Source: an uncultured bacterium
GTDB lineage: Bacteria > Verrucomicrobiota > Kiritimatiellia > RFP12 > UBA1067
Length of the DNA: 64,000 nucleotides
Reading direction: 5' to 3'
Assembly: GCA_902801025.1 (NCBI GenBank)
Contig: CADCGZ010000028.1
Coordinates: forward strand, 2,264-66,263
The notes below the pieces were generated by a model that was not told where the DNA came from, did no database searches, and saw only the letters and a program-made list of their open reading frames with translations. Of this stretch, positions 5,521-57,650 are shown in pieces; positions within the stretch are counted from its first letter, which is position 1; every line of letters starts with the position of its first letter. The position numbers were made by a program, and so were the translations under genes.

Positions 5521-7623
5521 ATGACGGAAGAGACAAAGGCCGCAACCGACTTCGGCGCCGATGTGTTCGGCGAAGAGGCGATCAACAAGTATTTGAGCAA
5601 GGACACGGCGAAGAAGCTCCAGGCGACGATTCGGGAAGGGAAGCCGCTCGATCCGTCGATCGCGGGCGAAGTCGCACATGGCATCCGCCACTGGGCGATG
5701 GATCGCGGCGCGACGCACTACACGCACTGGTTCCTCCCGATGACCGGCTCCACCGCCGAGAAGCACGACTCGTTCTTGGAACTCAAGGACGGCGAGCCGA
5801 TCATGCAGTTCAGCGGCAAGAACCTGATCGTCGGCGAGCCCGACGCATCGTCTTTCCCGTCTGGCGGCATCCGCTCCACCTTCGAGGCGCGCGGCTACAC
5901 CGCGTGGGATCCGACGTCGCCGGCGTTCATCAAGCGCCACTCGAACGGCGCCACCTTGTGCATCCCGACCGCGTTCTGCGCATACACGGGCGAGTCGCTC
6001 GACAAAAAGACGCCGCTTCTCCGCTCGATGCAGGCGCTCGACAAGTCGCTAAAGCGCCTCATGAAGCTCTTTGGGCGCGCCGAAGGCCATGCCGCGTGCA
6101 CGCTCGGCGCGGAGCAGGAATACTTCCTCATCGACAAGGGATACTGGAAGAAGCGTCCCGACCTCGTGCTTACGGGTCGGACGCTCTTCGGTGCTCCGTC
6201 CGCTAAGGGCCAGCAGCTCGAAGACCACTACTTCGGCACGATTCCAGATCGCGTCATTTCCTTCATGAACGACGTCGAGCGCGAGCTCTGGAAGCTCGGC
6301 ATCCCGGCGAAGACGCGCCACAACGAAGTCGCGCCCGCGCAGTTCGAGCTTGCGCCGCAGTTCGAGGAGCTCAACCTCGCGAGTGACCACAACATGCTCG
6401 TGATGGATACCTTGCGGAACGTCGCCGAAAAGCACGGAATGAAGTGCCTTCTCCACGAGAAGCCCTACGCGGGCGTCAACGGCTCTGGTAAGCACAACAA
6501 CTGGTCCGTCGCCTTCGGCGGCAGGAACCTCCTCGACCCGGGCAACGACCCGCACGAGAACGCCGTGTTCCTCACGATGCTCTGCGCCGTCATCGAGGCG
6601 GTAGACAAGCATGCCGACCTCCTTAGGGCCTCCGTCGCTGGTGCGGGCAACGACCACCGTCTCGGCGCAAACGAAGCGCCGCCCGCTGTCATCTCGATCT
6701 ATGTCGGCGACCAGCTCGCGGAAGTGCTCGACCGCATCGAGAATCCAAAGGGCGCGAAGCACGAGGAAAAGGGCTCCCTCAAGATCGGCGTCGACACGCT
6801 CCCCGCGATTCCGAAGGACGCGACCGACCGCAACCGCACTTCGCCTTTCGCGTTCACCGGCAACAAGTTCGAGTTCCGCGCTCCGGGATCGAGCGTCTGC
6901 TGCTCCGGCCCGATGACGGTCCTCAACACAATCGTCGCCGAGGCGGTAGACAGGATTGCCGCCGAGCTCGACGCCGCCAAGGTCGCCGGAAAGGCGAAGC
7001 CGGGCGAGCACACCGCGGCGTTCCACGTGGCTCTCCAGAAGATACTGCAGGCCTCGCTCAAGACGCACAAGCGCGTCGTGTTCAACGGCAACGGCTATGA
7101 GGCCGACTGGCCGAAGGAAGCCGAGAAGCGCGGTCTTCCCAATGCGCCAGACACGCTCTCCGCCCTGGCCGCGCTTTCGAAGAAGGAGAACGTCTCCCTC
7201 TTCGAGAAGTACGGCGTCATGACGAAGCGCGAGCTCAAGAGCCGCCACGAGATATTCCTCGAGGAATACGCCAACAAGGTGCGCATCGAAGGCAACACGG
7301 CGCTCGACATCGCAAAGACGATGATCCTCCCAGCCGTCCGCGCCGAGTATCTCGAGGTTGCGAAGGCCTACAACGAGACGGATTCCAGCAACGTGAAAAT
7401 CGCAATCGACATGCTTCACGGGCAGATGACGGAACTTGGCAGCGGACTCGTAAAGATGAAGGAGGCGATAGACTACTTGCAGGACGCGCTGAAGAACTAC
7501 GACACTGCGGACACCCTTGCGAGGATGGCCGAGCTCAGGAAGATCGCAGACTCGCTCGAGGCGGTCATCACGAGCGAAAAGTGGCCGCTTCCGAAGTACC
7601 GCGAAATGCTGTTCTTGTATTAG
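5521..7623 (+). CDS. glnN: Glutamine synthetase type III (GlnN)
   Basis: ~700 aa; GSIII N-terminal signature (YTHWFLPMTGSTAEKHDSF) and catalytic-domain motifs. The upstream in-frame extension to 5383 was rejected (implausible Arg-rich leader). Confidence 0.85.
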   Translation: MTEETKAATDFGADVFGEEAINKYLSKDTAKKLQATIREGKPLDPSIAGEVAHGIRHWAMDRGATHYTHWFLPMTGSTAEKHDSFLELKDGEPIMQFSGKNLIVGEPDASSFPSGGIRSTFEARGYTAWDPTSPAFIKRHSNGATLCIPTAFCAYTGESLDKKTPLLRSMQALDKSLKRLMKLFGRAEGHAACTLGAEQEYFLIDKGYWKKRPDLVLTGRTLFGAPSAKGQQLEDHYFGTIPDRVISFMNDVERELWKLGIPAKTRHNEVAPAQFELAPQFEELNLASDHNMLVMDTLRNVAEKHGMKCLLHEKPYAGVNGSGKHNNWSVAFGGRNLLDPGNDPHENAVFLTMLCAVIEAVDKHADLLRASVAGAGNDHRLGANEAPPAVISIYVGDQLAEVLDRIENPKGAKHEEKGSLKIGVDTLPAIPKDATDRNRTSPFAFTGNKFEFRAPGSSVCCSGPMTVLNTIVAEAVDRIAAELDAAKVAGKAKPGEHTAAFHVALQKILQASLKTHKRVVFNGNGYEADWPKEAEKRGLPNAPDTLSALAALSKKENVSLFEKYGVMTKRELKSRHEIFLEEYANKVRIEGNTALDIAKTMILPAVRAEYLEVAKAYNETDSSNVKIAIDMLHGQMTELGSGLVKMKEAIDYLQDALKNYDTADTLARMAELRKIADSLEAVITSEKWPLPKYREMLFLY

Positions 7624-7668
7624 GGGTCAGGGGTTAGGAGTCAGGAGTCAGTGAGTAGTGATTAGTGA
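7622..7668 (+). repeat. Family E tandem heptamer repeat (aggagtc)n at the glnN 3' end / purF leader
   Basis: gtattaggggtcaggggttaggagtcaggagtcagtgagtagtgattagtga. Related copies at 9573-9626 and 57611-57650, each immediately after a stop codon and 20-40 nt before the next start. Confidence 0.7.
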
Positions 7669-7674
7669 TATCAA

Positions 7675-9039
7675 ATGACTGATGAACTAAAGCACGAATG
7701 TGCCGTGGCGATGGTGGTCTTGAGAAAGTCCGCCGTCGCCACCGGCGATTTCGGTGGGACAAAGCTTTCGCTCCTTCTCGAAAAACAGCACAATCGCGGG
7801 CAGGACGGCGCGGGCGCGGCAATACTCTCGGCCAATCCCGAACCTGGCGAGACACCGTACTGGATCGCCAAGTCTGCGTCCGCTACACCGCTCACGGATG
7901 TGCTTGGAATGATCGGGAAGAGAAGCAGTGTTCAGACAGGATTTGAAAGGGTCTTTCTCGGTCATCTTCGCTACGCCACGTTCGGGAAAAACGACGTGGC
8001 GTTCTGTCATCCATTCGTGCACGAGTCGAGCGAACTGAATCATACGCTTCTTCTCGCCGGAAACTTCAACCTCACAAACGCCCACGAGCTTTTCGACGAC
8101 TACCGCCACCGCGGTTCATTCCCGACGAGCAAGTCGGACGGCTATCTCATCTGCGAGATTATTGCACAGGCGCTGAAAAATATTAGCCGTGTAGAACATG
8201 TAGAGCATGTAGAATTAGAACCGAATCTACATGATTCTACATGTTCTGCATGGTCAGAATCTGCTTTGTCACGCGCTATCTCCACGGCATTGAAGAACGC
8301 CGACGGCGCATGGACGCTCTGCGGCATGACCGCAGACGGATGGGCGTTTGCGACGCGCGACCCGCACGGCATCAGGCCTGGCTGGCACTACATCGACGAC
8401 GATGTCGTTGTCGTCGCCTCCGAGCGTGCCGCCATACAGGCGGCGTTCGACGTGCCGCCCGAAGCCGTGAAGGAGCTTCCGCCTGGCGAAGCGCTTGTCG
8501 TCTCGCCGGAAGGGGAAGTCAAGTTTGTTGATTTGAACCGTGCAGAACATGTAGAACGTGTAGAAAGCAATACTTCTGATCTACATGTTTCTACATGTTC
8601 TACACGGCTTGAAAAACCACTTGCCCGTCCCTGCTCTTTCGAGCGCATCTACTTCTCCCGTGCGAACGATGCCGACATCCACCGCGAGCGCAAGGCGCTT
8701 GGCGCGGCACTTGTGCCGCGGATCCTCGAGGCCGCCAATGCGCCGATGGACCGCATCTTCTTCAGCTACATTCCCAACTCCGCGCGCATCGCCTTTCATG
8801 GACTTCTGGAAGATTTGTTCAAGAGATGTGTTTCACCGCAGAGCCGCGTTAATAATATCCCGCGCTTTGGAGAGGTGGCGGTGAAGGACGCGAAGTTCCG
8901 CACGTTCATCGCTGACGCTGCGGCAAGGCGCGAGTTCTACAAGCATGTCTACGACGTGACCTACGGGCTCGTCAAGAAGGACGATACGCTCGTCGTGCTC
9001 GACGATTCGATCGTGCGCTTGGGCCGAAGAGAATCGTGA
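7675..9039 (+). CDS. purF: Amidophosphoribosyltransferase (PurF), N-terminal/major part; ends prematurely at a frameshift/deletion inside the PRPP-binding motif
   Basis: Propeptide plus catalytic Cys (MTDELKHECAV..), RGQDGAG, Fe-S ligand CSFERIYFSRAND, VVLDDSIVR then stop. Contains two in-frame family B repeat insertions (8186-8252, 8538-8608). Confidence 0.7.
   Translation: MTDELKHECAVAMVVLRKSAVATGDFGGTKLSLLLEKQHNRGQDGAGAAILSANPEPGETPYWIAKSASATPLTDVLGMIGKRSSVQTGFERVFLGHLRYATFGKNDVAFCHPFVHESSELNHTLLLAGNFNLTNAHELFDDYRHRGSFPTSKSDGYLICEIIAQALKNISRVEHVEHVELEPNLHDSTCSAWSESALSRAISTALKNADGAWTLCGMTADGWAFATRDPHGIRPGWHYIDDDVVVVASERAAIQAAFDVPPEAVKELPPGEALVVSPEGEVKFVDLNRAEHVERVESNTSDLHVSTCSTRLEKPLARPCSFERIYFSRANDADIHRERKALGAALVPRILEAANAPMDRIFFSYIPNSARIAFHGLLEDLFKRCVSPQSRVNNIPRFGEVAVKDAKFRTFIADAAARREFYKHVYDVTYGLVKKDDTLVVLDDSIVRLGRRES
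8186..8252 (+). repeat. Family B palindromic element (gtagaacatgtagaa / ttctacatgttctac arms), copy 1, in frame inside purF
   Basis: Imperfect 66-bp hairpin; translated as SRVEHVEHVELEPNLHDSTCSAW. Confidence 0.75.
8538..8608 (+). repeat. Family B palindromic element, copy 2, in frame inside purF
   Basis: ccgtgcagaacatgtagaacgtgtagaaag...ctacatgtttctacatgttctacacgg; translated NRAEHVERVESNTSDLHVSTCSTRLEKP. Confidence 0.75.
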
Positions 9040-9572
9040 TCGCCTCTTCCGCGCCACCAATCCGCTACCCAGACTGCTATGGCATCGACATGTCGACGCT
9101 GGGAGAGCTTGTAGCATTCAAGGCGCTTGTAAATTTGCTGGATGGGGAACGGGGAACGTATCCCCCGAGCGAAGCGAGCGCCGAAGGCGGCTCAATGCGG
9201 GGTGGGAACGGGGAACGGGAGTTGCGCGAAGCGCTTGCCGAAATTGAACATCTACACGTTTCTACATGTTCTACACGGTTAAAATCATTAAACCCTCTCG
9301 CATCCCTCTATGCGCGCTTCACTGAAAAGCAACACGCTGCAGAAATTGCCCGACTTCTTACCCCTCCGGGAATGAAGGCCGAAGTCGTTGTGGTCTATCA
9401 GACGATTGAAGACTTGCATAAGTCTCTTGCTCCCGTTCCCGGTTCCCGGTTCCCCGTTCCCCGAATTGGTGACTGGTATTTCACTGGCGACTATCCGACA
9501 CCTGGCGGATACAAGGTGCTGCGAAAGGCGCTTCTGAATTACTTGGATAAGAATTCGGAAAGGTCGTATTAG
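9036..9572 (+). CDS. purF: PurF C-terminal fragment in a different frame (GTG 9036 overlaps the upstream stop); carries three repeat insertions
   Basis: SAPPIRYPDCYGIDM ... GDWYFTGDYPT match the PurF C-terminus. In-frame family A (9144-9221, 9430-9465) and family B half-unit (9250-9278) insertions. Confidence 0.6.
   Translation: MIASSAPPIRYPDCYGIDMSTLGELVAFKALVNLLDGERGTYPPSEASAEGGSMRGGNGERELREALAEIEHLHVSTCSTRLKSLNPLASLYARFTEKQHAAEIARLLTPPGMKAEVVVVYQTIEDLHKSLAPVPGSRFPVPRIGDWYFTGDYPTPGGYKVLRKALLNYLDKNSERSY
9144..9221 (+). repeat. Family A element (ggggaacggggaacg terminal direct repeats flanking a gtatcccccgagcgaagcgagcgccgaaggcgg core), in frame in purF
   Basis: Translated [26 protein letters not shown]. 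The same unit occurs in pyrG (12768-12838) and, reversed and duplicated, in carB (15488-15627). Confidence 0.75.
9250..9278 (+). repeat. Family B half-element (right arm only) in frame in the purF C-terminal fragment
   Basis: atctacacgtttctacatgttctacacgg followed by ttaaaat, as in other copies. Confidence 0.6.
9430..9465 (+). repeat. Family A core oligomer, reverse orientation (cccgttcccggttcccggttccccgttcccc), in frame in purF
   Basis: Translated APVPGSRFPVPRI. Confidence 0.6.
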
Positions 9573-9626
9573 GGGTCAGTAATTAGGAGTCAGGAGTCAG
9601 TAGTCAGGGGTCAGGAGTCAGAGAAA
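9573..9626 (+). repeat. Family E tandem heptamer repeat between purF and carA
   Basis: gtattaggggtcagtaattaggagtcaggagtcagtagtcaggggtcaggagtcagag. Confidence 0.7.
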
Positions 9627-9633
9627 GGAATTT

Positions 9634-10827
9634 ATGAACTATAGTGAAAAGTGGAAGGTGGAACGCGAACGCAAGGCGTATCTCGCACTTGCGGACGGCA
9701 CTGTGTTCCACGGCGTCGCTTTTGGCGCTAAGAAGGACGCGCTTGGCGAAGTCGTCTTCAACACCGGTATGTGCGGCTATCAGGAAATACTAACCGATCC
9801 AAGCTACGCCGGGCAGTTCGTCACGCTTACCCCCGCAGAAGTCGGTAACTACGGCATAAATGCCGAAGACATAGAAAGCCGCAAGTTGTTCTTATCGGGT
9901 CTTGTCATTGGCGATTTGACCGCGCCTAGCAACTGGCGCTCCGAAAAGAGCTTGGACGACTACCTGAAGGAGAACGGCGTACCTGGCATTTATGGCGTCG
10001 ATACGCGCGCTCTAACGTTGCACTTGAGAGATCATGGTAACCAGAAAGCCTTTCTGTACGTTGGGGAACGGGGAATGGGGAACGGGGAACGGGAGGCGGT
10101 TGCCAAGGCGCGTGAATGGGAAGGGCTCGACGGCCAGGACTATGCGGCAAAGGTGACATGCGAGAAGGGGTATGAGTTTAAGACAGGATTAACAGGATTA
10201 ACAAGATTATCTGGGGACATGTCCACAGACCCCAAAAATCCTGTAAATCTTGTAAATCCTGTCAAAAGAATAGTCTGCTACGACTTCGGCGTGAAGACAA
10301 ATATCCTCCGTTCGCTTGCGTCGTGGGCAAAGGTCACCGTCGTTCCCGCGAAGACGCCTGCTGAAGAAGTCCTCAAGATGAAACCTGACGGCGTGTTCCT
10401 CTCAAACGGCCCCGCCGACCCCGCGGCAGTTACCTACGCCATAGAGAACATCAAAAAGTTGTTGGGGCCACTTCCCATAATGGGAATTTGTTTGGGGCAT
10501 CAGTTGCTCTCGCTTGCCTGTGGTGCGAAGACTGGGCGGCTAAAGTTCGGTCACCACGGCTGTAACCATCCAGTGAAGAACCTTGCGACAGGCCATGTGG
10601 AGATAACGAGTCAGAACCACAACTTCGCAGTCTTGCCAGAGACGGTTCCGGATTGCCTTGAAGTCACGCACATAAACCTCAACGACAACTCTATCGAGGG
10701 TGTCAGGCACAAGACGCTTCCCGCGTTCTCGGTGCAGTACCACCCCGAGTCTTGCCCCGGTCCGCACGACTCAAAGTATCTCTTCGACGAATTCAGAAAG
10801 ATGGTATTAGCCGTGCAGAACGTGTAG
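9634..10827 (+). CDS. carA: Carbamoyl-phosphate synthase small (glutamine amidotransferase) subunit, with two in-frame repeat insertions in the inter-domain linker
   Basis: GEVVFNTGMCGYQEILTDPSY, CLGHQLL, GHHGCNHPV, YHPES motifs. Insertions: family A 10063-10095 (GERGMGNGERE) and family D 10183-10264. Confidence 0.9.
   Translation: MNYSEKWKVERERKAYLALADGTVFHGVAFGAKKDALGEVVFNTGMCGYQEILTDPSYAGQFVTLTPAEVGNYGINAEDIESRKLFLSGLVIGDLTAPSNWRSEKSLDDYLKENGVPGIYGVDTRALTLHLRDHGNQKAFLYVGERGMGNGEREAVAKAREWEGLDGQDYAAKVTCEKGYEFKTGLTGLTRLSGDMSTDPKNPVNLVNPVKRIVCYDFGVKTNILRSLASWAKVTVVPAKTPAEEVLKMKPDGVFLSNGPADPAAVTYAIENIKKLLGPLPIMGICLGHQLLSLACGAKTGRLKFGHHGCNHPVKNLATGHVEITSQNHNFAVLPETVPDCLEVTHINLNDNSIEGVRHKTLPAFSVQYHPESCPGPHDSKYLFDEFRKMVLAVQNV
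10063..10095 (+). repeat. Family A oligomer (ggggaacggggaatggggaacggggaacggg) in frame in carA
   Basis: Direct sequence identity to other family A cores. Confidence 0.65.
10183..10264 (+). repeat. Family D 82-bp palindromic element (acaggattaacaggattaacaagatt ... aatcctgtaaatcttgtaaatcctgt) in frame in carA
   Basis: Near-perfect inverted repeat around the ggggacatgtccacagacccc centre; translated KTGLTGLTRLSGDMSTDPKNPVNLVNPV where E. coli CarA has only a short linker. Confidence 0.7.
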
Positions 10828-10925
10828 ATCGTGTAGAAAGGAGAAATTTAACCATGTGGAACATGTAAAACATCCAGTAGAAAGTGAATATGCAAATCTA
10901 CATGTTTCTACATGTTCTACACGGT
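10811..10925 (+). repeat. Family B element, long copy (~115 bp), at the carA stop / carA-pyrG intergenic region
   Basis: ccgtgcagaacgtgtagatcgtgtagaaag....ctacatgtttctacatgttctacacgg; supplies the last codons and stop of carA. May also act as a terminator-like hairpin. Confidence 0.75.
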
Positions 10926-10938
10926 TAAATAAACAGCC

Positions 10939-12872
10939 ATGAAAAAGCAAGTCAAATACGTATTTATCACCGGCGGCGTGGTTAGCTCGCTTGGAAAGGG
11001 CGTCACAAGCGCGTCACTTGCGCTTCTCTTGAAGAGTCGCGGCTACAGGGTCTTCATGCAGAAGCTCGACCCGTATCTCAACGTCGATCCCGGCACGATG
11101 TCGCCCTACCAGCACGGCGAGGTGTTCGTGACAGACGACGGCGCAGAGACAGACCTCGACCTCGGCCACTACGAGCGTTTCGCGGGCGTGACGTGCTCTA
11201 AGGCGTCGAACTACACCTCTGGCCGTATCTACTCAGCCGTCCTCGCGCGCGAACGCGCGGGCGGCTACCTCGGCGGAACGGTGCAGGTCGTGCCGCACAT
11301 CACCGACGAAATCAAGGCGGCGATCAGGAGTGCCGGCGAAGCGCATGGCGACGAGCCCGCGCCAGACATCGTCCTCTGCGAAATAGGCGGAGTATCGGGC
11401 GACATCGAGTCGCTCCCGTTCCTCGAGGCCGCGCGCCAGTTCCGCTTCGAAGAGGGAAATGAGAACACTTGCTTCGTGCACCTGACGCTCGTTCCCTATC
11501 TCAAGGCGGCGGGCGAGCTCAAGACAAAACCGTCGCAGCACTCCGTCGGCATGCTGCGAAACATCGGCATCATCCCTGACATCCTTGTCTGCCGCACCGA
11601 AATGACGATTCCCGAGGAGCACCTCAAGAAGCTCGCCATGTTCTGCAACGTGAAGCGCGAGTGCGTAATCGAGGAAAAGGATGTCGCAGACTCTGTCTAT
11701 GCCGTGCCGCGCGAACTGCGCGAGCAGGGTCTCGACGAGCAGGTCTTGAGGCAGGTGCGTCTCGACCTTTGGCCGATTAAGCACACGGTCTGGGACACGC
11801 TCGTCCGCAAGGCGACGCAGCCGAAGAAGCGCTGCCGTATCGCCCTTGTCGGGAAGTACATCTCGATACGCGACGCCTACAAGTCAGTTCACGAGGCCTT
11901 GCAGCACGCCGGCATGGCAAACGACTGCAAGGTCGAAGTCGTGCCTATCGAAGCGGAAGAAATCTTAACGCAGAGGCGCAGAGGCGCAGAGGCGGGGAAA
12001 GAATCGTCCTCGTCTGCATCTGACGGCCAGCAAGCCGGCAAATCATCAAAATCTCTCTGCGACTCTGCGTCTCTGCGTTTAAAAAATATCGACGGCATTC
12101 TCGTCCCCGGCGGCTTTGGGTCGAGGGGTGTAGAGGGCAAGATCGCCGCGATCAAGTATGCACGCGAGAAGAAGATTCCGTTCCTCGGCATCTGCCTCGG
12201 CATGCAGTGCACTGTCATCGAGTATGCGCGCGATGTCCTCGGCTGGAAAGACGCCAACTCGACGGAGTTCGACGAGAACACCACGCACCCCGTGATCGAC
12301 TTGATGGAAGAGCAGCGCGGCGTCACGCAGAAGGGCGGCACGATGCGCCTCGGCGCTTATCCGTGCGTCCTCGAGAAGGGCTCTCTCGCTGATAAGCTGT
12401 ATAGCCACAAAGAACACAAAGATAACTCTGCGCCTCTCGGCACTCGCTTCGCTCGGCTTGGCTCGCTACAAAACGCGAGCCCCGCTTCCGCGGCGGTTAC
12501 GCGACTCTGCGTTAAAAACAAAGACGCGCCCATTATTTCCGAGCGACATCGCCACCGCTACGAGCTTGCGAATGGCGGCAAAGTGCAGAAGGCGCTGACG
12601 GCCGCAGGGCTCAATGTAAGCGGCACGTCGCCTGACGGAAAACTCGTCGAGATAGTGGAGCTGCCGGGCCACCCCTACTTCATCGCCTCGCAGTTCCACC
12701 CCGAGTTCAAGTCGCGCCCGACAATCCCGCATCCGCTGTTCAACGGCCTTGTAAAAGCCGCGTTGAGGAACGGGAAACGGGGAACGGGTAACGGGGAACG
12801 TATCCCCCGAGCGAAGCGAGTCGCCGAAGGCGATGCCCTAGCAGGGGTGGTAACGGGAAGAGGGAGTGAAGA

Positions 12873-12876: not shown

Positions 12877-16199
<3,323 letters not shown>

Positions 16200-17612: not shown

Positions 17613-17774
17613 GACATAATTATACCATAAATTCGGCGGGGACCTAAGCAGAGTCGGGGTTGGGCGCAATTCGGCGGGGTCCGAAGGCTCCTCCTCGGGG
17701 AGCCCTCGGCGAATACGCCGAATCCCCTCGCTCGGACCTTCGCTCCCCCACCGAATTATGGTATAATTATACCT
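17613..17774. repeat. ~160-bp dyad-symmetric element between divergent DRTGG and kdsB genes; terminal inverted repeats ataattataccataaattcgg / ccgaattatggtataattat each carry an outward-facing extended -10 box
   Basis: Perfect 20-bp terminal inverted repeats; internal attcggcgggg repeats and a ggctcctcctcggggagcc hairpin. The -10 boxes sit 6 nt from each start codon. Confidence 0.6.
17760..17768 (+). promoter_or_regulatory. Extended -10 promoter box TGGTATAAT, 6 nt upstream of the kdsB ATG (leaderless)
   Basis: tggtataat at 17760-17768; ATG at 17775. Confidence 0.45.
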
Positions 17775-21411: not shown

Positions 21412-21427
21412 CTATAAACCATGTAGA

Positions 21428-21485
21428 ACATGCAGAACATGAAGAAATCTACACGATCTACACGTTCTACACGGCTAAATAACTG
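21428..21485 (+). repeat. Family B palindromic element between ligA and pyrC
   Basis: accatgtagaacatgcagaacatgaagaaatctacacgatctacacgttctacacgg followed by ctaaataa. Confidence 0.7.
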
Positions 21486-21489
21486 ACCA

Positions 21490-22620
21490 ATGAATAAAAT
21501 ACTGACATTTCCCGGCTTCGTTGACGTCCACGTCCATTTCCGCGACCCTGGCATTCCAGAGGCGGAGACAACGGCGTCTGGCCTTGAGGCGGCGCGGCGC
21601 GGCGGATTTGCCGCGGTCGTCACGATGCCCAACACGACTCCCGCCTGCGACTCGCCGGAGTGGATGGACTATCAGCGCAAGGCCGCGCAATGTGCTGGTG
21701 CTGGGACACTGCTTCTGCCATCGGCCTGCATCACCAAAGGTCGGCTTGGACGCGAAGTCGCCGATCTTGAAGCGCTTGCCGAGGCGGGAGCCGCGTTCTT
21801 CACCGACGACGGCTCGTATGTCGCGGACGACAAGGTGATGGAAGAGGCAATGCGCCGCGCTGCCGCGCTTGGGATGTGCATTTGCGAACACGCGATGGAT
21901 CCGAAGGAAGTCAAGGATGGCGTGATCCGCGACTGCAATCTCGCGAGGACTCATCATTTGCCCATCATTCCCGTCTCTGCCGAGACGATGGCAATTCGCC
22001 GCGATCTTGCGATTTGCCGCGTGACAGGATGCCGTCTTCACATTCAGCACATTTCCACGGCCGAGGGCGTTTCGCTCGTTCGCGACGCGCAGAAAGAAGG
22101 ACTACCTGTTACCGCCGAAGCGACACCTCACCATCTTCTTCTTTCGTGCGAGGAGATCCCGCGCGACGACGCGAACTACAAGATGGCGCCGCCTCTCGGG
22201 AATAACGAAGACCGCGCAGAGCTTCGCCGCGCCGTGAAGGACGGCGTTCTAATGTTTGCGACCGATCACGCGCCGCACCCTGCGGCGAAGAAAGCGCTTG
22301 GCTTTGCCGGGAGCGCGAACGGCATTATCGGACTTGAGGCGGCTATACCGCTTACTTGGGTCACGATGGTCGAGGGCGAGGGAATGTCGCCCGACGCCTG
22401 GGCGCAGGCGTGGTGGAAGATGTCGCGTGGGATTCTCTCGCCTCGTGCGGCCGCTCGTCTCGACGATGCGCGGCAAACTGTGGTCGAGATCGGTGAGCGG
22501 CGCGTCATCGATATAGCGAAGTTTGCCTCGCTCTCGCGCAATTGCCCATACGACGGCTTTGAATCTAACTGCTGGCCAGTCGCCGTTACCCATTGTCCGG
22601 CGCAAGGAATTGTGGTATAA
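21490..22620 (+). CDS. pyrC: Dihydroorotase-like cyclic amidohydrolase
   Basis: PGFVDVHVHFRDPG metal-binding motif; amidohydrolase fold; sits in a pyrimidine gene neighbourhood. Confidence 0.75.
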   Translation: MNKILTFPGFVDVHVHFRDPGIPEAETTASGLEAARRGGFAAVVTMPNTTPACDSPEWMDYQRKAAQCAGAGTLLLPSACITKGRLGREVADLEALAEAGAAFFTDDGSYVADDKVMEEAMRRAAALGMCICEHAMDPKEVKDGVIRDCNLARTHHLPIIPVSAETMAIRRDLAICRVTGCRLHIQHISTAEGVSLVRDAQKEGLPVTAEATPHHLLLSCEEIPRDDANYKMAPPLGNNEDRAELRRAVKDGVLMFATDHAPHPAAKKALGFAGSANGIIGLEAAIPLTWVTMVEGEGMSPDAWAQAWWKMSRGILSPRAAARLDDARQTVVEIGERRVIDIAKFASLSRNCPYDGFESNCWPVAVTHCPAQGIVV

Positions 22621-22628: not shown

Positions 22629-23501
22629 ATGAAAATCAAGTTCATCGCCAACATCAAGGGCATATATCTTGGGTATTCGTTTGAACAGTCCGACGTAGTG
22701 ACCATAGGGCGCGAAATCGGAAACACCATAGCGCCCATAAACGTAGATGGCTTTTCGCGCCACCACGCGCGCATCTTCTTCAAGGACGGAGCATGGTATG
22801 TCGAGGACGTAGGCAGCACAAACGGCACCTACCGCAACCGCGTCAAGGTCGAGGCCCCGACAAAGATCGAGAAGGGTGATTCGATAAGGTGCGGGCTCAT
22901 GGAACTTGCTTCGTTTGACTTCGAGGAGTCGGCATCTCCAGCTCCCGTGACGGCAGTCGAACCGCCGAAACCGGTTGCGCCAGTCGCGCCGACGGAGCCG
23001 CCCAAGCCCGCCACGCCAGTGGAGCCGCCTAAGCCGATTGAGCCAGTCAAGCCCGTGGAACCGGTCAAGCCCGTGGAACCGACCAAGCCAGTTGAGCCGG
23101 TCAAGCCGGTTGCCGAACTCGAGCCGGTCGTTCCACTTGAGCCCGTAGCGCCGCTTGAGCCGATTACTCCGCTTGAACCGATCACTCCTCTCGAGCCGAT
23201 TACGCCTCTCGAGCCGATTACGCCTCTTGAGCCAGTCGAGGAACTCAAGCCGGTTTCGCCCACCAAGACGGCGAAGGTCCCCACGCCAGTTGCGCCAGCG
23301 GCTCCTGCGGCTCTCCGCCGTCCGACTATACCAGGGCTTAAGCCCGGGCTAAAGCCAGGTCTCAAGCTTCCGCAAAAGGGCGGTTCGTTGCCAAGCGGTC
23401 TAAAGCTTCCGCCCAAGGGAGGTGCGTTGCCGAGTGGCCTCAAGCTCCCGCCAAAGCCAGGGTTGAAGCCAGGGCTCAAGGTTCCCGGCAAGGGCGCTTG
23501 A
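22629..23501 (+). CDS. FHA-domain protein with a long Pro/Val/Glu/Lys-rich tandem-repeat tail
   Basis: FHA motifs (GR..N.I....VSR.HA.I...DG.W.V.D.GSTNGT..N); then PxEPxKP and ITPLEP repeats and a GLKPGLKLP tail. Confidence 0.75.
22960..23250 (+). repeat. Coding tandem repeats (9- and 15-nt units: ccgattacgcctctcgagccg etc.) within the FHA-protein gene
   Basis: Visible nucleotide-level tandem periodicity; encodes the EPxKPV / ITPLEP arrays. Confidence 0.65.
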
Positions 23502-31755: not shown

Positions 31756-31773
31756 TTCTTTCTGGTGATTTTT

Positions 31774-31800
31774 AACGCAGAGACGCAGAGGCGCAGAGAA
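31774..31800 (+). repeat. Family C half-element (taacgcagagacgcagaggcgcagag) in the nusB-ribD spacer
   Basis: Same arm as the in-frame pyrG/carB copies. Confidence 0.6.
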
Positions 31801-34810: not shown

Positions 34811-36670
34811 ATGAAAACGATAACAATTCTTGCCGCAGTCATGTCTGTTTCGAGTGTGGCTTCGGCTGGAACGATGCTTACTACCTGGGGAGAGAAGGTT
34901 ACGAGCGAGAACGCCTGGCGTGACTATCCACGCCCTCAGATGGTGCGCCAGAACTGGACCAACCTCAACGGAGAATGGGAGTATGCGGTGACGAGCGTGA
35001 CCAATACGCCCGGACGCCCCGAGCAATGGGACGGGAAGATCCGCGTACCGTTCTGCATCGAGTCTGCGCTTTCCGGCGTCGGGCGGCTTCTGGAACCCGA
35101 CGAGTTCCTTTGGTACACGCGCAAGATATCATGCGACCCGAAACCCGGCGAAAGAATGCTGCTCCACTTCGGCGGCGTAGACTTCCGCACGATGGTGTTC
35201 ATCGGGCATGACGAGGTGACGGATGTTCCGCACGAAGGCGGGCAGAATCCCTTTACGCTCGATATCACGGACTTCGTGAAGAAAGGCGAGAACGAGCTTA
35301 CCGTCTGCGTGTGGGATCCAACCGAGAGATTCATCAACTCCCGAGGCAAGCAGTGCTTCAAGCCCCACGGATGCTTCTACACGCGCGTCTCCGGAATCTG
35401 GCAGACGGTGTGGATGGAGACGGTGCCCGAGAAGTACATCTCCGGCTACAGCGTAGTTGCAGACATCGACAAGGGGGAAGTGACGCTAAGTTTTCGGGGA
35501 ACGGGGAACGGGGAACGGGGAACGGTTGAAATCGAGACCTCTGCGTCTCCGCGCCTCTGCGTTGAAAAGACATTTGCCCCCAACGAGCCGGTTACAGTCA
35601 AGTTGCCCAAGCCAGTTGAATTGTGGTCGCCGGAGAACCCGAAGCTCTACAACTTCACCGCGAAGTACGGCAAGGACGAGATCAAGGGCTACTTCGGCAT
35701 GCGCAAGTTCGAGAAGCGGGCTGACGCGAAGGGGATTCTTCGGTTCTTTCTCAACAACGAGCCATATTACGTGATGGGCACTCTCGACCAGGGATGGTGG
35801 CCGGACGGGCTCTTGACGCCGCCTTCGGAAGAGGCGATGGCGTTCGACATCAAGACCCTCAAGGACTGCGGCTTCAACACCATGCGCAAGCACATCAAGG
35901 TCGAGCCGTTCCGCTACTATGCACTCTGCGACAGGATGGGCCTTCTCGTGATACAGGACCTCCCGAGCGGCAACGGAAACGCGGTCGATCCAATTGGGGT
36001 TGGCGTCGTTCCGCGCTATGGCCTGCAGCGCCAGGAGATGAAAGAGATGATGGACGTCCTCCAGACATTCCCCTCGATCGTGATGTGGAACCCCTACAAC
36101 GAGGGATGGTCGCAGCCAGGCGAATTCCTTACTCATTCCATGCTTGACTTCGTGCGCCGCTACGACCGTACGCGTCTCGTGAACGGTCCAAGCGGGTGGT
36201 GGGACTGGGAAGGCGGGCATCTCCTTCCAAATGGCTGGGACTGGAACAGGCGTGTTCTTACGAATCACAGGCCGGAGGGCGAATGCGAGGCGGCTGACAC
36301 GGTGGATCTCCATCTCTACCGCGGCCCCGACATGCTTGCGGTGAATCCGCGCCGCATAAGTTTCCTTGGCGAGTTCGGCGGGCTCGGACATCCCGTAGAA
36401 GGGCATCTATGGAAGGAGGCCAAGGGCAGCTGGGGATATGGCGGCATTTCGGACACGAAGAATCGCGAAGGTCTTGAAAAGGCATATCTCGGCCTCATGA
36501 AAAAACTCGGCGATCTCGCGGAGAAGGGACTTGGCGGTTCTATCTACACGCAGACGACCGACGTTGAGATCGAGATCAACGGTCTCCTAACATACGACCG
36601 AAAGGTACTGAAGTACAATCCAGAAGTCCTCAAGGCCGCACATGAGGCGGTCATCAGGCGCACAAAATGA
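34811..36670 (+). CDS. Glycoside hydrolase family 2-like (beta-galactosidase/mannosidase/glucuronidase type), secreted, with in-frame family A and family C repeat insertions
   Basis: GH2 sugar-binding N-domain (NLNGEWEY.., LLHFGGVDF...VFIGHDEV) and catalytic TIM region (NEPYY..., MWNPYNEGW). Repeat insertion at 35496-35563 (GTGNGERGTVEIETSASPRLCVEK). Confidence 0.7.
   Translation: MKTITILAAVMSVSSVASAGTMLTTWGEKVTSENAWRDYPRPQMVRQNWTNLNGEWEYAVTSVTNTPGRPEQWDGKIRVPFCIESALSGVGRLLEPDEFLWYTRKISCDPKPGERMLLHFGGVDFRTMVFIGHDEVTDVPHEGGQNPFTLDITDFVKKGENELTVCVWDPTERFINSRGKQCFKPHGCFYTRVSGIWQTVWMETVPEKYISGYSVVADIDKGEVTLSFRGTGNGERGTVEIETSASPRLCVEKTFAPNEPVTVKLPKPVELWSPENPKLYNFTAKYGKDEIKGYFGMRKFEKRADAKGILRFFLNNEPYYVMGTLDQGWWPDGLLTPPSEEAMAFDIKTLKDCGFNTMRKHIKVEPFRYYALCDRMGLLVIQDLPSGNGNAVDPIGVGVVPRYGLQRQEMKEMMDVLQTFPSIVMWNPYNEGWSQPGEFLTHSMLDFVRRYDRTRLVNGPSGWWDWEGGHLLPNGWDWNRRVLTNHRPEGECEAADTVDLHLYRGPDMLAVNPRRISFLGEFGGLGHPVEGHLWKEAKGSWGYGGISDTKNREGLEKAYLGLMKKLGDLAEKGLGGSIYTQTTDVEIEINGLLTYDRKVLKYNPEVLKAAHEAVIRRTK
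35496..35525 (+). repeat. Family A oligomer (ggggaacggggaacggggaacgggg) in frame in the GH2 gene
   Basis: Identical core to the purF/carA/pyrG/carB copies. Confidence 0.65.
35538..35563 (+). repeat. Family C arm (cctctgcgtctccgcgcctctgcgtt) in frame in the GH2 gene, adjacent to the family A unit
   Basis: Matches the ctctgcgtctctgcgtt arm of the pyrG element. Confidence 0.55.
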
Positions 36671-47013: not shown

Positions 47014-47487
47014 ATGTCTATTCTCATCGGTTTTCTCTATGTAGTCGAAGTCCTGGTCTGCATCCTTCTGGCGATGGTCGTTATGCTCCAGAAGCCGAAA
47101 GAGGGCGGCCTTGGCGGTGCGTTCGGCGGCGGCATGCTCGAGGCGTCTCTCGGTGCCGATGCGGGCAACGTCCTGATCCGCACGACGGCGATCCTCGGCG
47201 CGATTTTCCTTCTTAACACGCTCGTTCTCGCGCGTCTTACCTCGACCGTCCACTCCCGCAGCCTGATGGCGCGCGAGGCGGAGCCTGCGGCCGAGACCGC
47301 GCCCGCGCTTCCCGCGGCTCCCGAGCTTCCTGCGGTTCCCGAAGTGCCCGCTGCTGCGCCCCAGGCGCCTGCAGCACCCGCGCCCGCTGCCCCTGCAGCT
47401 GCTCCCGCGCCCGCTCCTGCGGCGCCGGCTCCTGCTGCCCCTGCGGCGCCGGCTCCTGCGGCTCCTGCCGCGCCTGAAGCTAAGTGA
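47014..47487 (+). CDS. secG: Preprotein translocase subunit SecG with a low-complexity Ala/Pro-rich C-terminal tail
   Basis: Two TM helices and the LGGAFGGG glycine-rich SecG motif; tail of (A/P) repeats encoded by tandem DNA repeats at 47290-47470. Confidence 0.8.
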   Translation: MSILIGFLYVVEVLVCILLAMVVMLQKPKEGGLGGAFGGGMLEASLGADAGNVLIRTTAILGAIFLLNTLVLARLTSTVHSRSLMAREAEPAAETAPALPAAPELPAVPEVPAAAPQAPAAPAPAAPAAAPAPAPAAPAPAAPAAPAPAAPAAPEAK

Positions 47488-57609: not shown

Positions 57610-57610
57610 T

Positions 57611-57650
57611 TGTCAGGGGTCAGTGCATAGGAGTCAGGAGTCAGTTGTAA
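57611..57650 (+). repeat. Family E tandem repeat after the FHA-MoxR gene / before the DUF58 gene
   Basis: gtcaggggtcagtgcataggagtcaggagtcagttgtaag. Confidence 0.65.

Follow-up and report, generated by a model that had tools for sequence, protein, structure and literature searches.

Several families of short palindromes, the Rickettsia palindromic elements (RPEs), lie in frame within unrelated housekeeping genes, where they are translated and are apparently compatible with function (PMC10969869). The 23S rRNA intervening sequence (IVS) of Coxiella, 428–444 nt long, has a terminal stem of ∼28 bp, formed by inverted repeats, and, in its loop, an open reading frame (ORF) of ∼120 aa of unknown function; it is regarded as a selfish element whose mobility is unclear (PMC4990558). 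The stretch of DNA analysed here, hereafter the window, comprises the 64,000 nt at positions 2,264–66,263 (forward strand) of contig CADCGZ010000028.1 (GenBank assembly GCA_902801025.1), from an uncultured bacterium of the lineage Verrucomicrobiota; Kiritimatiellia; RFP12; UBA1067. It bears five copies of a palindromic element, Family B, in and between the genes of a neighbourhood that includes a purF-like amidophosphoribosyltransferase gene (the name its orthologues carry in their source records), carA, pyrG, carB, ligA and pyrC. The presence of in-frame palindromes in purF, carA, pyrG and carB is analogous to that of the RPEs. The host of Family B belongs to an unrelated phylum and has a genome of 60% G+C, the arms of the elements are made of three tandem 7–9-nt units and occur mainly singly, orthologous sites switch family between close lineages, and a gene-carrying form has the same arms as Family B, while we know of no autonomous partner for the RPEs. 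The short copies of Family B are probably ORF-less (two-armed) or one-armed derivatives of a very small foldback element of ruminant-gut Kiritimatiellae that carries a gene for a GxxExxY protein, since the same arms bracket such a gene.

When the window was searched with the 15-mer GTAGAACATGTAGAA, allowing up to two mismatches, 13 arm matches were obtained, against 0.01 expected from dinucleotide-preserving shuffles. All five copies listed in a sequence-only reading of this DNA were present. They measure 36–124 nt and have no ORF of their own:

8183–8258, unstranded: copy 1, TTAGCCGTGTAGAACATGTAGAGCATGTAGAA ... ATCTACATGATTCTACATGTTCTGCATGG, a paired foldback in frame in purF; left arm 8183–8214, short loop, right arm 8225–8255, the outer unit of the right arm being degenerate (CTGCATGG).
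8533–8611, unstranded: copy 2, a paired foldback in frame in purF; left arm 8536–8566, right arm 8579–8607 followed by CTTGAAAA.
9250–9285, + strand: solo right arm, ATCTACACGTTTCTACATGTTCTACACGGTTAAAAT, in frame in the C-terminal part of purF (LHVSTCSTRLK).
10807–10930, unstranded: copy 4; outer left arm 10807–10838, extra inner left arm 10847–10880, right arm 10896–10930.
21413–21482, unstranded: copy 5, in the ligA–pyrC spacer; left arm ∼21415–21446, right arm 21447–21482, with no loop, so that the arms abut.

The reading frame of purF continues, as had been claimed, through copies 1 and 2 and the solo arm without a stop codon; they specify peptides of the SRVEHVEHVE and HVSTCSTR type (SRVEHVEHVE..., ...HVSTCSTRLE). 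Copy 1 is translated as ISRVEHVEHVELEPNLHDSTCSAWSE and copy 2 as LNRAEHVERVESNTSDLHVSTCSTRLEK, and junction peptides such as NISRVEHVEHVELEPNLHDSTCSAWSESALSR and AEHVERVESNTSDLHVSTCSTR are predicted for the inserts. The assignment of copy 4 to the carA stop and the carA–pyrG spacer also stood: the TAG codon (10825–10827) lies inside the outer left arm, and the right arm stops 8 nt short of the pyrG start codon (10939). Copy 5 was found in the spacer in which it had been placed, but the start given for it (21428) was ∼10–15 nt too far in; its left arm begins at AACCATG (21416–21418) and 7 nt separate the end of the copy from the pyrC start codon (21490). The dihydroorotase ORF beginning there (pyrC, 21490–22620) matches family profiles only from about position 50, and is therefore N-terminally short; the HxH metal motif (DVHVHFRDPG) is kept.

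The description of every copy as a hairpin held for the four paired copies, whose inverted arms are 27–32 nt long, and failed for the half copy. The predicted RNA folds had energies of –42.2 (copy 1, z –10.7), –37.5 (copy 2, z –7.9) and –44.4 kcal/mol (copy 4, z –7.5), with stems of 27–28 bp in the sense-strand RNA of these three; copy 5 folded more weakly on the + strand (–17.1 kcal/mol, z –5.3), because its mismatches are A·C on that strand, and the solo arm (9240–9290) folded no better than shuffled sequences (z –0.26). Stems of 27 bp could, by analogy, be RNase III substrates, as is the 28-bp stem of a 23S rRNA IVS (PMC4990558), and the intergenic copies lie at gene ends. It is nevertheless very improbable that the hairpins are kept for an RNA function (termination, mRNA stabilisation or RNase III processing), their repetition being then due to convergence or to copied modules. 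The window contains 13 terminator-like sites, none of which is a Family B copy; the tails of the copies are CTAAATAA or TTAAATAA and no T-tail follows any copy, so that none resembles an intrinsic terminator and the terminator role suggested for the intergenic copies was not borne out. Nor was that of mRNA-stability hairpins: sense-strand mismatches in 16 paired copies were G·U in 33 cases and A·C in 34, which gives no sign of selection for an mRNA hairpin. An Rfam scan assigned no family and returned only generic, miRNA-precursor-like hairpin matches of 24–30 bits, against cut-offs of 76–120. Copy 5 folds poorly on the transcribed strand, and the majority of copies are solo arms unable to fold.

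The predominance of solo arms emerged from a search with an 18-nt arm core in one genome per species. Each arm consists of tandem 9-nt units, GTAGAACAT and its complement, the left arm reading TTARCC followed by three CRTGTAGAA units. A logo of 113 aligned arms revealed a sharply bounded module of ∼34 nt (3 × 9 nt + CACGG + YTAAA; consensus [T/A]TCTACACG [T/A]TCTACAYG TTCTACACGG [C/T]TAAA(A)). It holds precisely three 9-nt units followed by an A-rich tail, and conservation stops at its inner edge. When 122 arms were classed by location with a crude gene caller, 70 were intergenic, 45 lay inside ORFs and 7 at ORF edges. An inverted partner within 130 nt was seen for only 27 of the 122, and the other 95 were solo, making the solo arm, and not the 60–115-bp palindrome proposed as the basic unit, the commonest form. 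Within ORFs the frames used were strongly uneven (RVEHVE 25 vs PCRTCR 2; STRSTC 15 vs FYTFY 3), the lack of stop-containing frames being a consequence of the definition of 'inside an ORF'. Arms frequently adjoin modules of other oligomer-repeat families, and a recurrent hybrid of ∼115 nt joins a left arm of the CACAAAGAA family to a Family B right arm (L055, L007, L021 and L080; L numbers denote related lineages and loci). In five loci (L016 1270–1376, L069, L078, L099 and L109, from three metagenome-assembled genomes [MAGs]: RUG12514, RUG14821 and a Lentisphaerae-labelled bin), a Family B solo arm is immediately preceded, on its upstream side, by a conserved sequence of ∼100 nt that has a hairpin of its own (CCACCCGTTCCGCGCCGTGATATTACGGCGCGGAACGGCCAATTTTGGCAAAAGGGAT...); this sequence may be orthologous or another repeat.

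Arms built of short tandem units have architectural counterparts. Drosophila foldback (FB) transposons have long inverted arms of short tandem sub-repeats, and the cyanobacterial short tandemly repeated repetitive (STRR) sequences are dispersed short runs of tandem heptamers; the likeness to Family B arms goes no further than architecture, these being eukaryotic or cyanobacterial sequences of different size, and we know of no link of either to GxxExxY. The TTTAAC...GTTAAAY variant of the arm is similar to the cores of integron attC sites (RYYYAAC/GTTRRRY). This analogy was set aside: the majority variant is TTAGCC...GGCTAAA, the copies are not in cassette arrays, and no integrase was seen, although no search was aimed at one.

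Repetitive extragenic palindromic (REP) sequences, together with their mosaics (bacterial interspersed mosaic elements, BIMEs) and doublets (REPINs), are also modules of ∼30–35 nt that occur singly or as inverted, hairpin-forming pairs, often in mosaics with other modules. The tetranucleotide GTAG flanks REPs and is present in every Family B unit. For all that, it is extremely improbable that Family B is a system of the REP/REPIN type and owes its movement to a REP-associated tyrosine transposase (RAYT; IS200/IS605-like). A single Family B arm is not palindromic, 45 of the 122 arms are inside genes and thus not extragenic, no RAYT or Y1/HUH-like ORF was present among the recurrent ORFs in 0.8 Mb around the arms, and the gene found between the arms has a PD-(D/E)XK fold. 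Of the suggestion that the architecture is MITE-like or REP-like (MITE, miniature inverted-repeat transposable element), the first half stood, Family B being a dispersed inverted-repeat family without coding sequence of its own, and the second, which would require a REP-like hairpin in the single arm, did not; the REP-associated tyrosine or IS200/IS605 transposase expected as a partner was not found, the gene with the same arms encoding a GxxExxY protein.

Additional copies, whose absence would have refuted the sequence-only reading, exist across the genome and in relatives, the arm occurring in at least 110 stretches from ∼40 assemblies, overwhelmingly ruminant-gut MAGs from independent studies labelled Kiritimatiellae or, in other cases, Verrucomicrobia, Lentisphaerae or uncultured RUG; among the matches listed, a single MAG has up to at least nine loci. 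A few matches in Herbiconiux, Chloroflexota and others were chance coding matches. Six matches in viral contigs, considered for a phage origin, were likewise chance coding sequence, without the third unit and the tail. In 10 other independent assemblies of the window's species (99.4–100% identical), every Family B copy was unchanged, so the copies are not a local artefact, the alternative that the sequence-only reading had kept in mind. The assembly of the window is not flawless. Next to repeats, at 9017–9018, its purF lacks 43 nt of conserved coding sequence (GCGCGGCAACACGATGAAGAACGCGATTCT...GATAG), which splits the gene into ORFs 7675–9039 and 9036–9572, while the segment, and an intact ORF of 634/646 aa, are present in all 10 same-species assemblies and in all relatives; the deletion is either a strain-specific pseudogene mutation or an assembly error. 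The chance that Family B itself is an assembly or binning artefact limited to this contig is negligible, given its identity in the 10 assemblies, the conservation of copies at orthologous sites in other species and the arms in MAGs of independent origin.

What lies between the arms in longer copies was seen in locus L010 (Kiritimatiellae MAG RGIG4421), where Family B left and right arms enclose, within 421 nt (7537–7957), an ORF of 134 aa; the left arm supplies its N-terminus (MISRAEHVERVE) and the right arm its stop codon. By profile similarity, the ORF is assigned to TIGR04256 ('GxxExxY protein', E 1e–33) and to Pfam PF13366 (PDDEXK_3), with a predicted PD-(D/E)XK fold; no solved structure matches the protein by sequence. 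Its five closest metagenome relatives (L131–L135) all have Family B-type arms, and extra arms form local arrays beside the full-length copies in L131–L133. Family B arms also surround GxxExxY genes in the P0240/P0165 loci (L211–L230, of which L211, L218 and L221 were inspected). Arms of two other families that, like Family B, occur as short palindromes in the window bracket GxxExxY genes as well: those of the GCAAAGAAC family in L089 (6575–7028), L140, L145 and L147, and those of the ACAGGATT family in L218 (386–820), beside a gene with Family B arms. The N-termini of the 120 closest homologues (≥71% identity) contain one to three arm-encoded RVEHVERVE repeats, and their C-termini, such as VTFST, run into the right arm.

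An alignment of three GxxExxY proteins, used to scan metagenomes, yielded 80 loci, of which 77 were testable. The ORF was bracketed by inverted arms (arm score ≥14) in 54 of the 77, from many environments, with a typical span of 440–500 nt, arms of 27–35 nt and an ORF of ∼125 aa; the same criterion was satisfied by 0/29 distal flanks and 4/132 mismatched loci. A 6-mer recurring at 8–10-nt spacing was present in the arms of 42 of the 54, against 12/485 control windows. Arm similarity followed protein identity (Spearman 0.27, a value reached by 0/2000 permutations), being 0.75 for pairs of at least 70% protein identity and 0.28 for distant pairs. The family is large (9,853 representatives at 50% identity, E ≤ 0.001), and it is a tentative proposal that PF13366 is the signature gene of an undescribed class of mobile elements of ∼450 nt, in which a nuclease gene would lie between foldback arms of three tandem 8–9-nt units. 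Their ORF-less and one-armed derivatives, settled in operon spacers and permissive regions of proteins, would replace one another at fixed hotspots and keep rewriting parts of housekeeping enzymes.

In L211 and L221 the element exactly fills an operon spacer, in the order stop codon, TTTAAC, arm, gene, arm(s), GTTAAAA and ATG of the next gene. The L211–L230 loci come from many rumen samples and have the element at a conserved position in a sugar-nucleotide operon, with Polysacc_synt_2 (FnlA-like) on one side and FdtA-like/UDP-GlcNAc 2-epimerase genes on the other. One of them, L218 (1–1831), is a 1.8-kb contig with two GxxExxY genes and, between them, a partial second copy of the adjacent FdtA-like gene, both FdtA-like copies being interrupted at the same codon (…GTTATTGAGGTTGARART|TTT).

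These elements are close in layout to the ORF-bearing 23S rRNA IVSs (S23p ORF; Coxiella burnetii, Leptospira), with a length of ∼440–500 nt, arms of ∼30 nt and an ORF of ∼125 aa. They differ in that the protein has a predicted PD-(D/E)XK fold instead of the four-helix bundle of S23p, that they occupy operon spacers and protein-coding genes rather than rRNA helices such as helix 25 or 45 of 23S rRNA, where IVSs are inserted, that their arms are tandem oligomers and that ORF-less derivatives abound.

With MITEs, Family B shares small, non-coding copies with terminal inverted repeats, dispersed in large numbers, alongside a longer and likewise dispersed element with the same ends that carries a gene; this gene is no known transposase, one-armed copies predominate and no clean target-site duplication was found. 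Mobilisation in trans, as a classical MITE, by a conventional transposase (for instance of the IS630/Tc1 type with a TA target, or one targeting TTAA) would agree with the size, inverted repeats, dispersal and AT-rich ends (TTTAR...YTAAA), and TTAA, which is its own complement, stands on both sides of some full-length copies (L211, L218 and L221). We consider it improbable, because no recurrent transposase-like ORF was found near the arms: among ORFs of at least 120 aa clustered from 110 arm-bearing loci (0.8 Mb), none was a transposase, the largest clusters being giant surface proteins, kinases, ATPases and ABC transporters. In a generic search, inverted repeats of 20 nt spaced 250–900 nt apart gave recurrent gene-carrying cases only in L010 and L089, both with GxxExxY, which is the sole gene found between Family B arms. 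The ends are TTAR...YTAA, most commonly TTAG...CTAA, which are inverted and not direct, and so read as part of the inverted repeat and not as a target duplication; pairs of filled and empty sites showed microhomology without a fixed duplication. That most copies are single arms also speaks against a MITE of this kind.

The behaviour of the short copies inside genes was followed in DNA alignments of the syntenic glnA3–purF–carA–pyrG–carB operon from five lineages. Despite 6–8 insert sites, purF is a single intact ORF in L008, L089, L127–L130 and ten strains, and carA, pyrG and carB are also intact across relatives with differing insert content, which implies that translation through the inserts is under selection; in genes, short copies persist only in frame. 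In 115 PurF orthologues (66–100% identical, 556–750 aa), length variation is confined to ∼8 hotspots. Two of these contain Family B peptides (NHVERVDHVE..DLHVSTCSTRLN) in most orthologues, and short native sequence (AKQLEERSAKSEN; ELDRQQADVESPRAVRHCS) or other modules in the rest. The placement of inserts in tolerant loops is read from the alignment hotspots; an AlphaFold model built with the 115 orthologues for mapping them reached a mean pLDDT of 41, too low for use. The site of copy 1, a copy found in most of the 115 orthologues, is occupied by Family B in L089, L127, L128 and L130, by a short loop in L129 and by a remnant only in L008. At the site of copy 2, the element is also present in L008 and L128, its left arm shortened; L127 and L089 have other modules there, and L129 and L130 a short native loop. 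The solo arm adjoins a preceding GGGGAAC-family element (9141–9222); the combination recurs in L089 and L130, and L008 has a palindrome of the ACAGGATT family there.

Sites are thus re-used by different families. At the 3′-end of carA, after ...GAATTCAARAAnATGnTn, a single nucleotide position in five lineages has received four families:

Window: Family B.
L128 and L130: TTAGCC + GCAAAGAAC units.
L129: TTTGCC + ACAAAGAAC units (a palindrome of the CACAAAGAA family).
L127: a solo arm of a further family.

Five lineages have five families at carA 10179, and switching at one nucleotide was also seen at pyrG 11965 and at purF sites 1, 3, 6 and 7, in lineages that are 80–90% identical. The modules are dense in this part of the window, with ∼15 of at least six families at 7.6–16 kb and ∼5 in the other ∼48 kb. 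Two sister families were characterised:

10179–10268, unstranded: ACAGGATTA units with a conserved centre, CTGGGGACATGTCC; in frame in carA, with the same design as Family B; arms of this family bracket the GxxExxY gene at 386–820 of L218.
14178–14268, with a second copy at 14475–14546, unstranded: TTAGCC + CAAAGAACG units; the first copy is in frame in carB, and arms of this family bracket the GxxExxY genes of L089, L140, L145 and L147.

The carB family and Family B have common termini (TTAGCC / GGC..AAA) and a 9-mer frame, NNNNAGAAC, and the termini TTTAGCC / GGCTAAA are common to the families that replace one another. The empty allele of purF site 1 reads TTCAGACAG|GATTTGA; the first unit, GACAGGATT, is already there, and GATT is found at both junctions of the insert. 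Similar partial junction homology was seen at purF sites 2 and 3 and on comparing L009 with L028 and L055 with L021.

Some of these observations would also be produced by host-driven palindrome turnover, in which the elements would require no enzyme of their own: replication stalling or host hairpin nucleases would be followed by template-switch or microhomology repair copied from other palindromes, GxxExxY being a passenger in the loop. Filled and empty sites show a target already similar to the terminal unit (purF site 1 and others), different families replace each other at one nucleotide, hybrids such as that of L055 have arms of two families, and indels between strains lie within palindromes. 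Ten near-identical strain assemblies have indels at three places only, window positions 10164–10236, 15233–15354 and 15641–15690: carA is split in L121 by the loss of 73 nt inside the ACAGGATTA palindrome (10164–10236), carB is split in L117 by the loss of 122 nt, and in L120 a loss of ∼50 nt shortens the carB product by 17 aa. The palindromic modules appear to be either fragile sites or sites badly handled by assemblers. Host turnover is unlikely, however, as it leaves unexplained the placing of GxxExxY genes in 54/77 loci exactly between arms of a common plan that contain the start and stop codons, and the tracking of protein lineages by arm families; in addition, the sharply constant outer ends and the three-unit length look more like an end that is recognised than like the outcome of random template switching.

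The origin of the short copies from a GxxExxY-carrying foldback element suggests the following scheme. The full element, of ∼420–450 nt, would comprise a left arm, a GxxExxY gene of 125–135 aa and an inverted right arm ending in CACGGYTAAA, the start codon and first residues (M-x-S-RVEHVERVE) being provided by the left arm and the stop codon by the right. Short copies would be non-autonomous mobile DNA, surviving only where they do little harm. One such place would be operon spacers, with the A-rich tail just upstream of the next start codon; another would be permissive protein regions, where only in-frame, stop-free inserts would persist, as His/Val/Glu-rich or Ser/Thr/Cys-rich peptides. Because a full-length copy brings its own stop codon and would disrupt an essential gene, the in-gene copies must have arrived short. 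A site that holds a palindrome would become a hotspot, at which related lineages come to carry sister families at the same nucleotide. Breaks at or beside the arms, made by the GxxExxY nuclease, which may be the mover of the elements, or by host nucleases that cut palindromes, would be repaired by copying another element via short terminal homology. We infer such break-and-copy because the junction homology, the common termini and the local arrays of extra arms fit it; it would explain the spread of the elements, their replacement at hotspots, the solo arms and the arm arrays. A telomerase-like 3′ extension at breaks was also considered, since inverted arms of tandem units would result, and was set aside because the outer ends and the phase of the units are constant and the arms carry start and stop codons.

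Several points count against this derivation. The co-variation of arms and protein could come from simple linkage rather than recognition, and the sharply fixed three-unit length of the solo arms is not obviously predicted by an origin in deletion or abortive repair. No movement was seen among strains, Family B being 100% stable in the 10 assemblies, and no clean target-site duplication was found. Neither the 64-kb window nor the 20-kb strain loci contained a GxxExxY gene, and only one of ∼122 sampled arms (that of L010) belonged to a full-length element. The P0240 and P0165 loci represent one conserved polysaccharide-gene context, their many contigs being many samples and not many insertion sites. 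Finally, a survey that lists the GxxExxY family gives its function as 'Unknown' (PMC3424549).

Repeats of other types were also present in the window. A heptamer family (GGAGTCA/GGGGTCA, beginning TATTAGGGG) occurs at 7619–7668, 9568–9622 and 57610–57645, the first two places being the glnA3–purF and purF–carA spacers and the third lying far downstream. The family was not seen with a GxxExxY partner, and the purF–carA spacer of L127–L130 is a highly variable mosaic of heptamer modules. GGGGAAC heptamer repeats are found at 9141–9222, 9430–9465, 10063–10095, 12767–12860, 15491–15632 and 35493–35527. These repeats are in frame in purF, carA, pyrG and carB. Several of them flank a conserved core of ∼45 nt (CGTATCCCCCGAGCGAAGCGAG..GCCGAAGGCG..), and in carB the core is tandemly duplicated with a 59-nt period (15493–15610). 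An octamer family, GCGCAGAGG, with TTAAC / GTTAA ends, has a full palindrome in frame in pyrG (11965–12085) and solo arms at 31771–31799 and 35537–35566; in the metagenome loci L156, L157, L160 and L176, GxxExxY genes lie between arms of closely similar sequence (TTCGCGCAGAGGCGCAGAGGACGCAGAG). At 22944–23249 and 47302–47478, long in-frame tandem repeats with periods of 9/18/36 nt give rise to low-complexity protein segments, Pro/Glu/Lys-rich and Ala/Pro-rich, and have no relation to the palindromic families. An AT-rich inverted repeat of 33 nt (ATAATTATACCATAAATTCGGCGGGGACC...) with an 89-nt spacer (17616–17770) is intergenic or antisense and unlike the oligomer-repeat families.

Family B lies outside the REP/RAYT, IVS/S23p, terminator and Rfam families, since each has defining features that were tested for and are absent here. 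Full-text searches in one library, which are no proof of novelty, found no description of a link between GxxExxY and palindromic repeats. The behaviour of the short copies resembles that of RPEs and MITEs, and the full layout is closest to that of ORF-bearing IVSs. On the practical side, the repeats break assemblies and gene calls in rumen MAGs, as in the split purF, carA and carB calls seen here. As one position hosts different families in lineages that are 80–90% identical, the mechanism of palindrome insertion and replacement becomes testable. Family B would be a second, independent and far more dynamic case of the RPE phenomenon, in a free-living gut phylum and trackable across dozens of MAGs, and the GxxExxY elements plausible kin of the ORF-bearing intervening sequences of 23S rRNA, which have long lacked an explanation. 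By tying the GxxExxY gene to families of short palindromic repeats, these results suggest the first concrete genomic role proposed for the widespread GxxExxY/PDDEXK_3 family, which would be that of the resident gene of a tiny foldback element.

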